From the sequence record NC_106721.1: a stretch of DNA of 64,000 bases; one strand, 5' to 3'. The notes below the pieces were generated by a model that saw nothing but the letters and a program-made list of their open reading frames with translations, searched no databases and was not told the DNA's origin. This stretch comes from Escherichia phage EC148. Every line of letters starts with the position of its first letter. Position 1 is the stretch's first letter. Made by a program: the position numbers and the translations under genes. Of the stretch, positions 1,578 to 58,817 are shown piece after piece.

Positions 1578-3242
1578 TTACGCAAAGAATTTACCGTTTT
1601 TAAAGTCAATCAAAGTGCGCTGACCGTTTGCATAGGTAATTAAATGCGTCTGCGTCCAGCTTGACGCGCCAACGTTGTAACCCATATCCAGACTACCAGC
1701 TACGCCAGCGGTGTATACGCCGCCGTAAATGCTGGCGGTATGCGTATGCCCCGTGTTTAACTTGCCCAATTTCTTAAATTGTTTCGGGTTGCCACGGCTG
1801 CCGTTAATGCCGTTGTGACCGTGTACGCCGCATTCAATACCTGCAATCTTGAAAGATTGGTCAGTGGTTAGGAAAATGGCGTTAAACTCACAACCTGCAA
1901 CCTTGCGCAACGCATAATCTAGCACGTTGAAAGTATCGTCATGCTCACCGATTGCCGCGTAAATTGCAGCATTTAGGCGGTGATATAGTTCGGCGTTGGC
2001 GGGATCGTCTTTAATGTTAGCATTACGATCATCAAGCCAGCGGGATAGCGCCAAATCGTGATTCGATTCTACGATGATTGTTTGACTAAAATCACGTTCC
2101 ATTGATTCCAGCACGCGCCCCGTATCGATAAGATCATCCAGAACTTTATCACGTCCGGCGGCATACTGTTTCGCTAGGAATACACCGGATGCACGGTTAT
2201 GATGATTGCGCGATGTAAAATCATGCACGTCATGAATAAGCTGATATTTTGGTTTAAGAATATCAAGCAAACTATTCTCGCCAGCCCATGACGCAACGGC
2301 ACAATCATCATCTAATTTTTCGGCGTGAATATCGCCATACTGCAAGCCTAAAACATGCCCCGATGTTTCATAGCATCCGGCAGGAGTAGCGCAAACGTTC
2401 AGATCATAAAACACCCCGCTTTCGTCCATCGTTTCAAGCTGGCGTACAAAAAATTCCCCGTCGTCGTCGAACTCAACAATAAGCGCACCGAAGTTATGCA
2501 GCGCCTCGGCCTTTTGTCCTGCTTTCTGCTGAATGTAGTTTTTGAGCGTTGCCGTTCCGGTTGAATACATACGGCGCACTACTTCACCTTTTAAAGCTGG
2601 CACACTTTCAGCGGTGATTTTAGCGTGACCAATTGCCAGACCTTCAATATTTAAAGCCGTTGCAGTTTCTGCGAATCCAGAAAGCGGATAATCTGCGGTT
2701 GGCAAAACATTAATTTCAGCCATGAAAGCGAAACGGCGGTTATTTAAAAACACGTTTTTGCTGCAAATATATTTATCAAACGCGGAATCATATTTGATTC
2801 CATCCGCACCTTCCCCATTTTGAAAACCGTTTTTATTATAAATATACTTAGAAACGAGCAAATCAGCGCCGATAAATTTGGCATATTGTTCAAGTGAGGC
2901 CAAAAAGTTTTTATGCGGGAAAGTATTATTCTGAATCGATGTAATAATAAAGCGTTTGCCTTGTTTTACTTCCCACTGTTCAACCGTGCTAGAAACAACC
3001 CCCGCCGCTTCTGGGCGCTCGTCGTTTTTAATGGCTTTTGCTACTTTCGCCGCTTTCGGTTTCGCTGGTTTATTTGCTTCCAACCAATCACAAATGGCGG
3101 TGGAGTGTTTCGTTGTATCGTAGACCGCTTTTGATATATCGTCGCAGACTTCCAGTTTAGTAGCGCGCAGACGTTTACCATAGAAATTAAAGTCAGCGGC
3201 CATTTTCAGGATAACGGTTTGTTTTTCTGCGGAAATAATCAT
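1578..3242 (-). CDS. A1: A1-like pre-early protein, calcineurin-type metallophosphoesterase
   Basis: 554 aa ORF; phosphoesterase motifs GDIH, HDVHDF, ESNHD, GHNG/GHTH; position after dmp matches T5 pre-early order. Confidence 0.65.
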   Translation of the reverse strand: MIISAEKQTVILKMAADFNFYGKRLRATKLEVCDDISKAVYDTTKHSTAICDWLEANKPAKPKAAKVAKAIKNDERPEAAGVVSSTVEQWEVKQGKRFIITSIQNNTFPHKNFLASLEQYAKFIGADLLVSKYIYNKNGFQNGEGADGIKYDSAFDKYICSKNVFLNNRRFAFMAEINVLPTADYPLSGFAETATALNIEGLAIGHAKITAESVPALKGEVVRRMYSTGTATLKNYIQQKAGQKAEALHNFGALIVEFDDDGEFFVRQLETMDESGVFYDLNVCATPAGCYETSGHVLGLQYGDIHAEKLDDDCAVASWAGENSLLDILKPKYQLIHDVHDFTSRNHHNRASGVFLAKQYAAGRDKVLDDLIDTGRVLESMERDFSQTIIVESNHDLALSRWLDDRNANIKDDPANAELYHRLNAAIYAAIGEHDDTFNVLDYALRKVAGCEFNAIFLTTDQSFKIAGIECGVHGHNGINGSRGNPKQFKKLGKLNTGHTHTASIYGGVYTAGVAGSLDMGYNVGASSWTQTHLITYANGQRTLIDFKNGKFFA

Positions 3243-43588: not shown

Positions 43589-44290
43589 TCAAATTTTCAT
43601 TTTTTCGATCATAGCTGCAACACAATAGCTTTCAACTAAGGCATCAAATGCAGGATCATGCTTAACCGGATAGATCCCATAACGAATGGTGTCCATCTTC
43701 TCCATTTTAGCTTTTGCCCAGCTAATACCTTCAGCCTCTAGATCTTTGTAACTATAATCAGCTTGCATCCAGAGATTACGAAGAGATCGAACATTGCCCA
43801 AATTCCAGAATTTCCACGGAACTACCTCTTCATTGGTTCCAGCATGGAATGTGTTTGCAGAGTAGATAGTCATATCAAACTCTGGGCCATTACCATAATA
43901 CAAAGCATTTTCGCCTAGAGCCAACTCCATAATATTTTGAGCCATAGAGAAGGCAGCATAGTTTGAGCCAAATTTATTAGTGCAATGATGTTTACCATTT
44001 TGGAAGGCAATCAGTTTTGGATTACGTTCCTTCATAGCTTCCATAATGTGAATAGCAGACGGGCTATTTTTAGCTTGATCCATCCAGAATGCTAGAGTAG
44101 ATGCTGTAACTTTAGCACCAGAATTAAGCTGATCTTGTACATCCAAAGTAACAAATACTAGATCAGGGTCTTTATCAATTCCATGCATAGCCACAAAAGC
44201 GAAAGAAGGCATTGCGATATGAGTAGTACCACAATCTCCTGGAGTTCCCAGAGATTCAATATCTAGCATACCAAATGGTTTTACTTTCAT
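43589..44290 (-). CDS. hypothetical protein, possible DEDD-type exonuclease
   Basis: 233 aa; N-terminal MLDIESLGT resembles Exo I motif (D-x-E); other motifs not confirmed. Confidence 0.3.
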   Translation of the reverse strand: MKVKPFGMLDIESLGTPGDCGTTHIAMPSFAFVAMHGIDKDPDLVFVTLDVQDQLNSGAKVTASTLAFWMDQAKNSPSAIHIMEAMKERNPKLIAFQNGKHHCTNKFGSNYAAFSMAQNIMELALGENALYYGNGPEFDMTIYSANTFHAGTNEEVVPWKFWNLGNVRSLRNLWMQADYSYKDLEAEGISWAKAKMEKMDTIRYGIYPVKHDPAFDALVESYCVAAMIEKMKI

Positions 44291-44876: not shown

Positions 44877-45392
44877 TTACTTCGCTTTACGCTTGCGAGC
44901 TGGTTTAGCAGATTTACGAGCAGAATCACCAGTGAACTTAATGCCTACACCGTAACACAGAGCGCGAACATTATCTTTACTATACTCTACGCCAAAGATA
45001 TTTGGCTTAACAGAACCAAACTGTCCACGAGTATCGCGCAATACATCTGCTGTTGGTTTACGCTTCTGGTTAACTGCCTTCTCGTAGTCTTTCATAGACA
45101 TACCATTACGAGAGAACAATTCAGCCCCAGCGTTGAAACTCAAAGATACTGGGACAGATTTGTGGCCGTAATTTTCTACATACATAACCATTTTGTAGGA
45201 TTTACGGGTGGCATTTTTAGCTTTAGGCTTCTTACGAATCGGAGCCGGATTATTCAATGCTTGCGCAGCCTGAGCATCGGTAGGATGCTTACGCAGGTGA
45301 CGTTCCAGACGAGCTTTGCGATTAGCCTCGGTCTGCGGGAAAGTTTTAACTGCCGGGGCTGCTTGAGTTTTTGCGTTTTTCTGCTTAGCCAT
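44877..45392 (-). CDS. basic protein, possible nucleic-acid-binding
   Basis: 171 aa; Lys/Arg-rich termini. Confidence 0.45.
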   Translation of the reverse strand: MAKQKNAKTQAAPAVKTFPQTEANRKARLERHLRKHPTDAQAAQALNNPAPIRKKPKAKNATRKSYKMVMYVENYGHKSVPVSLSFNAGAELFSRNGMSMKDYEKAVNQKRKPTADVLRDTRGQFGSVKPNIFGVEYSKDNVRALCYGVGIKFTGDSARKSAKPARKRKAK

Positions 45393-45430: not shown

Positions 45431-45459
45431 ATTATACGAGAATTTGAAGCGTTTAGCAA
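45431..45459 (-). promoter_or_regulatory. early promoter, TTGCTA-17-TATAAT
   Basis: conserved cassette. Confidence 0.55.
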
Positions 45460-45467
45460 ATGAATTT

Positions 45468-45917
45468 TTAATTTATTAACTGTAAGCTTCTTTTAATTTC
45501 AGACCTTACTTGCATCAAAAGGACTCCTAAAGTATTATCCCCGATGCCTCGGCAAACACCCCAATATGTATCTCCCCAGGTATTTCCTTCGATCAAAGTT
45601 GCATTTTCTGTTGCTAACAGTTTATCTCTTAAATCAGGAATTGCAAACTTTAATCGTAAAAGCTCTAGCATTACATCATCTTTTACTTTATCCCAGTCAG
45701 AGCGTAGGGTTAATTTACGTCCTCTACGTTTAGCAACTCCTGCATTTAGGGAGCGGAGTACATGAGCTACATCATCTTTTTGGTCGGATTTCATAGCCTG
45801 AAAAGCATGTTCTACAGTATCAGCATGCCATATCTCATTTAGATATTCGAAAGTAATTGGTGATAAATAAAAGTTAGATAAGAAACTATAAGTACCTTTA
45901 AATTCAGTAATCTTCAT
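45468..45917 (-). CDS. NADAR / YbiA-like (DUF1768) domain protein
   Basis: 149 aa; LSNFY ... EHAFQA ... GR ... W ... ENxWGDxxWG ... G.GxNxLG ... VR matches the NADAR family pattern. Confidence 0.65.
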   Translation of the reverse strand: MKITEFKGTYSFLSNFYLSPITFEYLNEIWHADTVEHAFQAMKSDQKDDVAHVLRSLNAGVAKRRGRKLTLRSDWDKVKDDVMLELLRLKFAIPDLRDKLLATENATLIEGNTWGDTYWGVCRGIGDNTLGVLLMQVRSEIKRSLQLIN

Positions 45918-46198
45918 TTTTTACGCCCCGCATCTTTAGCCTCCTCGGCTGTATAGATATACTGATAAGCCCCTTTGGAGTAGGCTGGAGCAGTACACAT
46001 TTTCTTACGCTCAATCTCTTCTTGAGCTTTTCTTTCGCGTTCCGCTAATTCTTCGTCCAAATAAACTAAACGTTGTTCTGGAGGAGGTGGAAGACGTGTT
46101 TCTGGCTCGCCAATATTAGCCTTTCTTATTTGACGAGGTGATTGTGCACGTTTTCTCAATGGTTTAAATCCTAATGAATTTGAGTTATAGATCCGCAT
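45914..46198 (-). CDS. hypothetical protein
   Basis: 94 aa ORF. Confidence 0.4.
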   Translation of the reverse strand: MRIYNSNSLGFKPLRKRAQSPRQIRKANIGEPETRLPPPPEQRLVYLDEELAERERKAQEEIERKKMCTAPAYSKGAYQYIYTAEEAKDAGRKK

Positions 46199-46225: not shown

Positions 46226-46254
46226 ATTATACTAAATTATAGGGCTTTAAGCAA
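46226..46254 (-). promoter_or_regulatory. early promoter, TTGCTT-17-TATAAT
   Basis: conserved cassette. Confidence 0.55.
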
Positions 46255-56303: not shown

Positions 56304-56493
56304 GGGTTTAAACTCCGCTTTGGAAAATGCATTAATGCAGCAGTGGGAAACTGGCTATAAGGATGGTGTTGAATCCTGCGCTACTATGCTAGAAGTTATT
56401 GCTAATACCTTAATGGAGAAAGGCAATAAAGAATTAGCTGAGCTATTAGACAGTATTGGGCAAAACTTCAGAGAACAGGTGAAAAATGCGTAG
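56272..56493 (+). CDS. hypothetical protein
   Basis: 73 aa ORF. Confidence 0.4.
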   Translation: MAFSKPILPDKGLNSALENALMQQWETGYKDGVESCATMLEVIANTLMEKGNKELAELLDSIGQNFREQVKNA

Positions 56494-57322
56494 ATTAATT
56501 ATTATTAGTGGTGCGGGTTTGAGTGTTGAAAGTGGTGTACGAGCCTTCCGTACTGATACTGCTAGTGGTAAAGCATTGTGGGATGACTATGATCTAGAAG
56601 AAGTATGTAATATTCATGCCTTTCGTGGTAATTTTTATCATAAAACCCATATGTTTTACAACAAGCGTCGTGAAGAGCTAAAAACTGTTGAACCCAATCT
56701 TGCGCATTTGCGTATTGGTGAATGGTATAAACAATATCCAGGTCAAGTAGTAAACTTGACTACCAACGTTGATGACCTTATTGAGCGTGCTGGCGTTCCA
56801 CATAGTGACATTCTGCATATTCACGGATATTTAAAAGAGGTTGTTGTAGCTGATAGCTACAATAGTAGCAATAAACGGATTATTGATGTAGGATACAATT
56901 CTATTGATCCAGATGATTATAAATGGGTTAAACCTAATGTAATCTTCTTTGGAGAGCATGCTCCTGCATACGCAGAAATGTATAATGTTTTTGACGGTAT
57001 TACCAGTCAAGATATGATCATTGTGGTTGGTTGCTCTAACCAAGTAATTAACTTCTACTGGGAATTATTTCCTGTTCTTAATAGGACTGCTGCGAAATTT
57101 ATGGTAGTTAACTACTATGATAGTGCCCTCGCGGCGGAACCGGGCTATCAAGGTATGACTCGTAGTGAGATGTACCAGCTGGAAGAACGTGGTGTCCCTT
57201 ACTGGAGTAAAGGTGCGGTAGATGCTTTTAGTGATCCTGATTTTATTGCTCGTGTAGAAGCTCATTTAGAGGGTAGACCTTATGTGTCGAGAAGCAAGGG
57301 AAACAGATATGTCCATAGTTAA
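56486..57322 (+). CDS. Sir2-family (sirtuin-like) NAD-dependent enzyme lacking the zinc-ribbon module
   Basis: 278 aa; GAGLSVESGVRAFR, TTNVDDLIERAG, HIHG, VIFFGE match sirtuin NAD-binding motifs; no CxxC pairs. Confidence 0.6.
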   Translation: MRRLIIISGAGLSVESGVRAFRTDTASGKALWDDYDLEEVCNIHAFRGNFYHKTHMFYNKRREELKTVEPNLAHLRIGEWYKQYPGQVVNLTTNVDDLIERAGVPHSDILHIHGYLKEVVVADSYNSSNKRIIDVGYNSIDPDDYKWVKPNVIFFGEHAPAYAEMYNVFDGITSQDMIIVVGCSNQVINFYWELFPVLNRTAAKFMVVNYYDSALAAEPGYQGMTRSEMYQLEERGVPYWSKGAVDAFSDPDFIARVEAHLEGRPYVSRSKGNRYVHS

Positions 57323-57491
57323 ATCTGTGTATACACACCCCGATGATATATTTGTATGGGCGGATGGTAGTTGGTGCTATCGCTGTGAGCTGTGGGAGAT
57401 GGACTATAAATCCGATGACTATGGTGTTATATATGTTGATACGGTTGAGTATGATACGTTCTTAGAAAGGAACAAAAATGGAAATAAGTAA
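57282..57491 (+). CDS. hypothetical protein
   Basis: 69 aa ORF. Confidence 0.35.
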   Translation: MCREARETDMSIVKSVYTHPDDIFVWADGSWCYRCELWEMDYKSDDYGVIYVDTVEYDTFLERNKNGNK

Positions 57492-57984
57492 TACTCCAAT
57501 TATTTTTCTAGATATTGATGGGGTGCTCAATTCGAGCATCTCCCACCATCATGCACCTGATGACGAAAAGATTTTCTTTGGAAGTGATTGGGTTTTCAAA
57601 CCGCTTCTCAAGGCTTTTCAGGACTTTATTCGTCCTTCTCCGATAATGATTGTTGGAGTATCCTCATGGTTCTCTGTCAGGAATGAGATGGAGAACGTTC
57701 AGATTATGACCGGATTAGGTCTTATCGATCGTTTTCTTGGTACAACGGATTTTACTGGGGGTGGATTATCTAGGGGTAATTCTGTTCTTCGCTTCGTTGA
57801 AAAGCATAAGCTCAAACATTGGTGTGTTCTGGATGACGCTGGTGCTATGATGTACCAGTATCCAACGGTTATAGTCAACGGTAGAACTGGAATAAATCTT
57901 CAAGATTTAATGGCTGTTAGCTATATGCTAGAATTTAGTCCAGATCTTGAAATGTGTAAAGCCCTACAACAATTTAAGGTGTAA
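57478..57984 (+). CDS. HAD-superfamily phosphatase
   Basis: 168 aa; motif I FLDIDGVLN. Confidence 0.5.
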   Translation: MEISNTPIIFLDIDGVLNSSISHHHAPDDEKIFFGSDWVFKPLLKAFQDFIRPSPIMIVGVSSWFSVRNEMENVQIMTGLGLIDRFLGTTDFTGGGLSRGNSVLRFVEKHKLKHWCVLDDAGAMMYQYPTVIVNGRTGINLQDLMAVSYMLEFSPDLEMCKALQQFKV

Positions 57985-57986
57985 AT

Positions 57987-58415
57987 ATGTTCAATAATGT
58001 ATTCTCTAAAGAAGCTAACCCAATTTTGGTTAACTTTTGGCGTACTCTACCGGCTAGCCTGTATAATGAGGCTATTAACTCCTTGAAAATATGGTGTGAG
58101 AATAACGAAATCTCCTTTGCTTTTAAAGATGATATTGATGAGGCCCCCTGTATTGGTTTAATTGTGCAGGTAGAGGATGGTCTTGAAGAGATTGTGGGCT
58201 GGAAAGAGTTAGACGAAATGGGCTTAGTTTTTGCGTTAAATTATAAGCTGTTTATGCCTGCTAAGCATCGCCTTGTTGTTAACTATAAAACTAGTGAATC
58301 TCCTGGTTTTCAGGTTAATGAACGTTATGGTTGGTCTTACTCACCGGAAGAAGTAAATGAGGGGATTCAGAAACTTCGACGTTTCGGGTATATGATCCCA
58401 GGTTTAACTGCTTAA
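57987..58415 (+). CDS. hypothetical protein (paralog A)
   Basis: 142 aa; shares a domain with the next gene (C-x-G-[LV] ... W-x-ELD ... MGL[VI]-x-ALN ... P-GL). Confidence 0.45.
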   Translation: MFNNVFSKEANPILVNFWRTLPASLYNEAINSLKIWCENNEISFAFKDDIDEAPCIGLIVQVEDGLEEIVGWKELDEMGLVFALNYKLFMPAKHRLVVNYKTSESPGFQVNERYGWSYSPEEVNEGIQKLRRFGYMIPGLTA

Positions 58416-58424
58416 GGAGGCAGA

Positions 58425-58817
58425 ATGGAACAAGTATATTGGCGTCAGATTGATCCTAGTTTGGTGAAACGTGCGGAGAAGCTGCTACAACGTTGGTTGG
58501 GGGTAAGACAAGCCTCCTTCACTTTTCCGGAGCAGCAAATAGATGATCCCTGTGTTGGTGTTTTCCTATCCGGCTACGCGGGGGAATGGGAGTTGGATTG
58601 GAATGAGTTGTCTGCTATGGGTTTAATTGTTGCCCTAAATTTCTCTTTGTTCCACCCACGTGGTTTGGCCATATGTCGTGTGTCGGATGATGGTTGTTCG
58701 CCCCATCTTTTACAGGTGGAAGATGATATTTGGGAGTACACTCCAGATATTCTCAAAGAAGCTAAAGAACAATTAAACCGTGTTGGGATTTATGTTCCAG
58801 GCTTAAATGATGAATGA
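58425..58817 (+). CDS. hypothetical protein (paralog B)
   Basis: 130 aa tandem paralog of 57987..58415. Confidence 0.45.
   Translation: MEQVYWRQIDPSLVKRAEKLLQRWLGVRQASFTFPEQQIDDPCVGVFLSGYAGEWELDWNELSAMGLIVALNFSLFHPRGLAICRVSDDGCSPHLLQVEDDIWEYTPDILKEAKEQLNRVGIYVPGLNDE

Follow-up and report, generated by a model that had tools for sequence, protein, structure and literature searches.

An orphan, antitoxin-like NADAR gene, probably directed against DarTG1, forms an accessory cassette in a T5-like Escherichia phage

What is a NADAR gene doing in the early region of a T5-like phage, at a locus where T5 itself has none? The window analysed here, a 64,000-nt stretch of DNA from Escherichia phage EC148 (NC_106721.1), comes from a T5-like phage (Tequintavirus), and its minus strand carries, in this order, nrdA, nrdB, frd, thy, rnh, a 94-aa ORF, the NADAR gene, a DUF7022 gene and an exonuclease-like gene, which is the order of the T5 early region. 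This places the NADAR gene within the early group of nucleotide-metabolism genes (nrdAB, frd, thy, rnh). It is an ATG-to-TAA reading frame of 149 codons at exactly 45468..45917, encoding 149 aa, and its strand, which the earlier note on this DNA did not give, is minus. We propose with considerable confidence that the product is an orphan, antitoxin-like NADAR ADP-ribosylglycohydrolase of the AdfN-Bas32 type, which would be made early in infection and act on the damage caused by DarT1.

An HMM match, the fold and the active-site residues all confirm that the product belongs to the NADAR superfamily. The protein matches the Pfam NADAR family (PF08719, DUF1768) with E=7.2e-22 and 78.8 bits, the gathering cut-off being 35.1, and the match extends over residues 9-142 of the protein and takes in positions 9-163 of a model that has 163. 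PHROG 1017, a family of unassigned function, is matched at E=1e-44, and the sequence matches in the PDB are E. coli YbiA (2B3W, 3e-15) and the Phytophthora nicotianae NADAR (8BAU, 7e-7). These family matches are far above chance. A search for homologues gathered 1038 at E<=1e-5, and 59 homologues, 46-98% identical to the window protein, make up the subfamily alignment. The AlphaFold2 model obtained with these 59 sequences (pLDDT 97.0, pTM 0.91) adopts the alpha+beta fold of NADARs, a helical core with small beta-hairpins on either side. Compared with the PDB by Foldseek, it superimposes on E. coli YbiA with a TM of 0.82 at 37% identity and on the complex of the P. nicotianae enzyme with ADP-ribose (8BAU) with a TM of 0.78. 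The DarG1-type NADAR of G. lovleyi (8BAT), which has an N-terminal extension, is a poor match (TM 0.50), and no significant PDB matches other than NADARs were returned. The earlier note had recognised a NADAR/DUF1768 pattern across the length of the ORF and had named a Pfam HMM search and a comparison with known NADAR structures as the means to check it; the reading frame proved exact, and both comparisons bear the assignment out.

The predicted catalytic and ADP-ribose-binding residues of the window NADAR are E36, K43, K63, G66/R67, W75, K79, E110, D116 and W119. In a profile alignment they correspond to E43, K50, K75, G78/R79, W89, R93, E125, D130 and W133 of 8BAU, whose ADP-ribose-binding and catalytic residues were defined by Schuller et al. 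2023 (PMC11543638). This mapping is valid, since a constant offset of 2 between the numbering of the chain and that of the paper reproduces every residue named there. In the numbering of E. coli C7, E36, K43 and K63 are equivalent to E88, K95 and K115. Across the 59 subfamily members E36, K43, E110, D116 and W119 are invariant and K63, G66, R72 and W75 nearly so. Two ADP-ribose contacts of the Phytophthora enzyme have no counterpart in the window protein, Y84 being replaced by R72 and D86 facing a gap. The catalytic and ADP-ribose motif is nevertheless present, with the Glu and Lys of ExxFQxxK, the acidic residue before D..WG and the phosphate-binding K/R/W.

What such a protein may do for the phage is indicated by a near-twin. 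The window NADAR is identical at 148 of 149 positions (99.3%) to the product of bas33_0070, a gene of Escherichia phage HildyBeyeler that is annotated as 'hypothetical'; bas33_xxxx locus tags denote the BASEL phage Bas33. The sole difference is E104K (E104 in the window, K104 in Bas33), at a position that lies outside the invariant and near-invariant columns of the 59 sequences and maps to no ADP-ribose contact, so that, judged from the alignment, the E104 variant would be expected to behave like the K104 protein. Johannesman et al. (Nat Commun 2025, PMC11825919) describe Bas32 and Bas33 as 'Markadamsvirinae closely related to T5' that encode identical NADARs, named AdfN-Bas32 (AdfN, anti-DarT factor NADAR). 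That bas33_0070 is AdfN-Bas32 rests on the locus tag, on the single NADAR match in the Bas33 genome and on the wording of that article. According to its text on this protein, AdfN-Bas32 neutralises the toxicity of DarT1 in E. coli cells that are not infected, and its ectopic expression brings RB69, T5 and Bas25 back to full titre on a host with DarTG1; DarTG2 is unaffected by it, and T5 is not helped on a DarTG2 host. The text in question concerns ectopic expression, and a deletion in Bas32 or Bas33, a catalytic mutant or an in vitro assay was not found in it. The anti-DarTG1 NADAR finding is therefore already known, having been published in 2025 (PMC11825919), and the counter-DarTG role that the earlier note had proposed is supported, as regards DarTG1 and not DarTG2, by the reported neutralisation of DarT1 and rescue of three DarTG1-sensitive phages. 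The window gene shares with that of Bas33 its locus, gene order, flanks (rnh, the T5.090 homologue, NADAR, P-H207, DUF7022) and genus, Tequintavirus; at the DNA level, synonymous and flank differences in the window add to E104K. It is also an orphan gene, with rnh, the T5.090 homologue and DUF7022 as neighbours and no adjacent DarT toxin: none of the 8 flanking ORFs, compared with Pfam, matched an ART family.

Is the gene a fixed part of T5-like genomes? Its boundaries were defined by aligning the window with both T5 and Bas33. T5 has no NADAR gene at this locus, where about 440 bp are missing from it. Along rnh and the greater part of T5.090 the window shows near-perfect identity to T5; this identity decays in the final ~20 codons of T5.090 and is restored 2 nt past the NADAR stop, where P-H207 begins. 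The segment that differs from T5 (~45467..45982, minus) consequently comprises the last ~20 codons of the T5.090 homologue and the whole NADAR gene, and the cassette falls exactly between T5.090 and P-H207. Because 45918..45982 diverges from T5 together with the NADAR insertion, a recombination boundary would lie inside the T5.090 homologue, the C-terminus of which is altered by it (…YIYTAEEAKDAGRKK versus …YVSDEEQAKMVGR). The surrounding 1.5-kb region is 100% identical in Escherichia phages SUT_E1520, SUT_E420 and SUT_E520 and 97-99.9% identical in many other T5-like phages. It is matched by 433 phage records, and 92 of them cover at least 80% of it, which means that they carry the NADAR gene. 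This number is consistent with the 94 phage records in which tblastn finds the protein at >=95% identity, and exactly this protein is encoded in deposited phage genomes. The NADAR gene is thus an accessory cassette, carried by about a fifth of the T5-like records. T5 is reported to be sensitive to DarTG1 in the text of PMC11825919, which fits its lack of the gene.

How would the gene be expressed? The 94-aa ORF upstream (45914..46198, minus) is the homologue of T5.090, 88% identical to its counterpart in Salmonella phage UTK0009, and matched no Pfam family. Its stop codon overlaps the NADAR start codon (ATGA, 45914..45917), and for this reason the two genes are probably co-transcribed and translationally coupled. 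No Shine-Dalgarno-like sequence was seen at a normal distance from the NADAR start, and neither a consensus scan nor reading of the sequence found a promoter directly upstream of it. A T5-type sigma-70 promoter-like element is instead located at 46226..46254 (minus), in the 77 nt that separate rnh from the 94-aa ORF, and consists of TTGCTT (46254..46249), a 17-nt spacer and TATAAT (46231..46226), with an A/T-rich tract upstream and a GAGGAGG ribosome-binding site following it before the 94-aa ORF. The consensus scan missed this element because its -35 hexamer matches at only 3/6 positions, but, in an alignment with the T5 record, it coincides at every base with the promoter that is annotated there between rnh and T5.090. 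The classic T5 promoter PN25 likewise has TTGCTT as its -35 hexamer. The element is the likely promoter of the 94-aa/NADAR pair. The early promoter with which the gene had been credited is therefore not one of its own, yet early expression of the NADAR as the second cistron of a two-gene unit, driven by the T5-type promoter before the 94-aa ORF, is plausible from the arrangement of the locus.

A second element (45431..45459, minus; TTGCTA-N17-TATAAT), found both by the consensus scan and by alignment with T5, is the homologue of the T5 early promoter P-H207. It was considered as the NADAR promoter and rejected, since its -35 hexamer begins 8 nt past the NADAR stop, downstream of the gene. It serves the next gene, DUF7022 (44877..45392, minus; E=2e-76), which encodes a lysine/arginine-rich product, and marks the downstream edge of the cassette. 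In T5, P-H207 precedes the DUF7022 homologue and is one of the strongest early promoters of that phage. Between the NADAR gene and P-H207 no intrinsic terminator was found on the minus strand. The DUF7022 gene is T5.089 in T5, and its UTK0009 version is 22 aa shorter.

In the mechanism that we propose, infection of a DarTG1 host would free the DarT1 toxin, which would put ADP-ribose on guanine of the phage DNA and block its replication. The phage NADAR, made early in infection, would most likely strip the ADP-ribose from guanine and so restore replication. It would act alone, with no need of another phage factor, and would not reverse the thymine modification made by DarT2. We infer catalytic glycohydrolysis by the window protein from its conserved active site and, by analogy, from in vitro work on AdfN-T4 and other NADARs; likewise, the gene would be required in its native phage.

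The position of the protein among the NADAR types helps to delimit this proposal. E110, a Glu, is the mark of the 'YbiA family' in the de Souza-Aravind scheme, in which this position is Asp in the DarG1/BC4488 type and His in phage NADARs of the T4 type. Like E. coli YbiA, the window NADAR is a minimal core without extensions and has the EHxFQAxK and E...D..WG motifs. However, the score against the riboflavin N-glycosidase equivalog TIGR02464 is 66.6 bits, below the curated NCBIfam cut-off of 73.7, so that the description 'YbiA-like' holds for the fold and for the catalytic Glu E110 and not for membership of the housekeeping riboflavin family. The published tree, as presented in the text of PMC11825919, groups AdfN-Bas32 with two archaeal NADARs, outside the YbiA clade. 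Moreover, E. coli YbiA hydrolyses guanine-ADP-ribose in vitro yet does not rescue cells from DarT1 (PMC11125620), and protection from DarT1 in vivo is reported, of the two, only for AdfN-Bas32 (text of PMC11825919). Since YbiA is active in vitro and gives no rescue, fold similarity alone would not predict function in vivo.

With DarG1 (E. coli C7; G. lovleyi, 8BAT), which reverses ADP-ribosylation of guanine at N2, the window protein shares the catalytic Glu and Lys. An antitoxin NADAR of the DarG1 (BC4488) type was nevertheless rejected: the N-terminal beta-beta-alpha extension is absent from the 149-aa protein, the catalytic Asp of DarG1 (D171) is replaced by Glu (E110), and DarG1 is encoded beside its toxin gene, whereas no darT1 neighbours the window gene. 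AdfN-T4 (gp30.3), a member of the same superfamily, also counters DarTG1 and is specific for guanine-ADP-ribose over thymine-ADP-ribose. It differs in having His at the position of the catalytic Glu and, according to the text of PMC11825919, in needing a T-even-specific factor and in being unable to neutralise DarT1 in uninfected cells. A T4-type assignment was also rejected, as BLASTP with gp30.3 gave no similarity and hhalign a probability of only 88%. Two other models describe families to which the window protein does not belong, the NADAR model of the PADLOC candidate system PDC-M42C (a weak match, 5e-7) and NCBIfam DS32_2 (44.8 bits against a cut-off of 240).

Could anti-DarTG1 activity be one facet of a broader or different role in ADP-ribose biology, directed at cytidine-ADP-ribose, guanosine-ADP-ribose in RNA, other ART toxins or ADP-ribose-dependent effectors such as Retron-Eco1? 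We regard this as unlikely, though it is the alternative that survives best. The window protein keeps the YbiA-type Glu E110 and not the Asp of DarG1 or the His of AdfN-T4. In PMC12945103, cytidine-ADP-ribose is removed by YbiA-type and general NADARs, not by DarG1 or T4 types, and RNA guanine-ADP-ribose by all NADAR families tested. Inhibition of Retron-Eco1 by a phage NADAR, with no need of catalysis, is cited in the text of PMC11825919, and Aravind and colleagues have proposed soluble ADP-ribose derivatives as the targets of phage NADARs. Against these observations stands the activity of AdfN-Bas32 on DarTG1, which the text of PMC11825919 presents as direct and strong, with full rescue of titre.

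Far less probable is a stoichiometric neutralisation of DarT1, in which the protein would bind the toxin in the manner of AdfA or AdfB and would not remove ADP-ribose from DNA. Anti-DarT factors of the binding type do exist, and the text of PMC11825919 on AdfN-Bas32 does not describe a catalytic-dead control. However, the catalytic and ADP-ribose-binding residues are invariant in a subfamily whose members are only 50-60% identical, which indicates selection for catalysis; AdfN-T4 gave no stable binding to DarT1 and required catalysis; and every NADAR type tested hydrolysed guanine-ADP-ribose in vitro (PMC11125620, PMC12945103). The least probable reading, by a small step, is a metabolic N-glycosidase of riboflavin-pathway intermediates, like E. 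coli YbiA or plant COG3236, or else a 'swarming motility protein': YbiA is the nearest solved structure, TIGR02464 is matched at E=3e-18 and several records label the gene YbiA, GTP cyclohydrolase II or riboflavin biosynthesis protein, but that match stays under its curated cut-off, riboflavin genes are absent among the annotated ORFs around the gene, the published tree separates AdfN-Bas32 from the YbiA clade, the near-twin rescues from DarT1 (text of PMC11825919) and YbiA does not (PMC11125620), and the 'swarming motility' labels appear to have been transferred from YbiA by similarity rather than tested.

Removal of ADP-ribose left by DarT1 thus remains our preferred reading, and relatives in other phages bear on how the gene may have come to this locus. 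Salmonella phage UTK0009 (Epseptimavirus) has a NADAR that is 60% identical to that of the window (2489-2938 of the UTK0009 segment compared). Its gene is inserted between rnh and the T5.090 homologue, one junction further upstream than the NADAR gene of the window, and the T5.090 homologue of UTK0009 has a C-terminus of the T5 type. These alignments suggest that divergent NADAR alleles were acquired at this spot in Markadamsvirinae at least twice. The next relatives, 50-57% identical, are found on metagenomic contigs of 150-170 kb that resemble phage genomes, where genes of nucleotide metabolism and small unidirectional genes surround them, and tblastn reveals relatives at 30-50% identity in phages of Streptomyces, Vibrio, Stenotrophomonas, Bacillus and others. 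The 90%-identity protein cluster that has a NADAR as its representative also lists many T5.090 proteins of 92/94 aa, probably an artefact of the overlapping gene pair, and its 235 members are therefore not a count of NADARs. It is a tentative idea, a little more doubtful than that of a broader role, that the Bas32-type NADAR is a mobile, general-purpose ADP-ribose eraser cassette that has entered Markadamsvirinae at least twice, using different junctions next to T5.090, and that, since the YbiA-type Glu is retained, perhaps also erases cytidine-ADP-ribose or RNA-ADP-ribose or blunts further ADP-ribose-dependent defences, of which Retron-Eco1 is an example. If this were true, the cassette would give protection beyond DarTG1.

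Other genes of the window deserve mention in their own right. The 233-aa ORF at 43589..44290 (minus) matches the Rv2179c-like 3'-5' exoribonuclease domain (E=5e-8); its homologue in T5, T5.087, is annotated as an exonuclease, and the 'metallopeptidase' label that this ORF bears in many records is, from its domain match, probably wrong. On the opposite strand, ~10.6-13 kb from the NADAR gene, 56486..57322 (+) and 57478..58817 (+) hold ORFs of NAD- or RNA-repair type, namely one of the Sir2 family (E=8e-25), one with HAD_SAK_2 ('Swiss Army Knife RNA repair') and two with DUF7415, which by position and gene order correspond to T5.102-T5.107.

What does the presence of this gene mean for T5-like phages? 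Biologically, nothing here is new beyond the 2025 paper (PMC11825919), and our additions are modest: the boundaries of the cassette relative to T5, the operon arrangement, a residue-level map of the active site and the divergent NADAR at a neighbouring junction in Epseptimavirus. The gene already bears the annotation 'antitoxin-like enzyme, NADAR superfamily' in at least one deposited genome. In most T5-like genomes, however, it is labelled 'hypothetical', 'swarming motility protein' or 'GTP cyclohydrolase II', and it can now be given an experimentally backed name, AdfN (anti-DarTG1). The presence or absence of this ~0.5-kb cassette should predict the plating of T5-like phages on E. coli or Salmonella that carry DarTG1, a prediction that would be useful in the choice of therapeutic phages.
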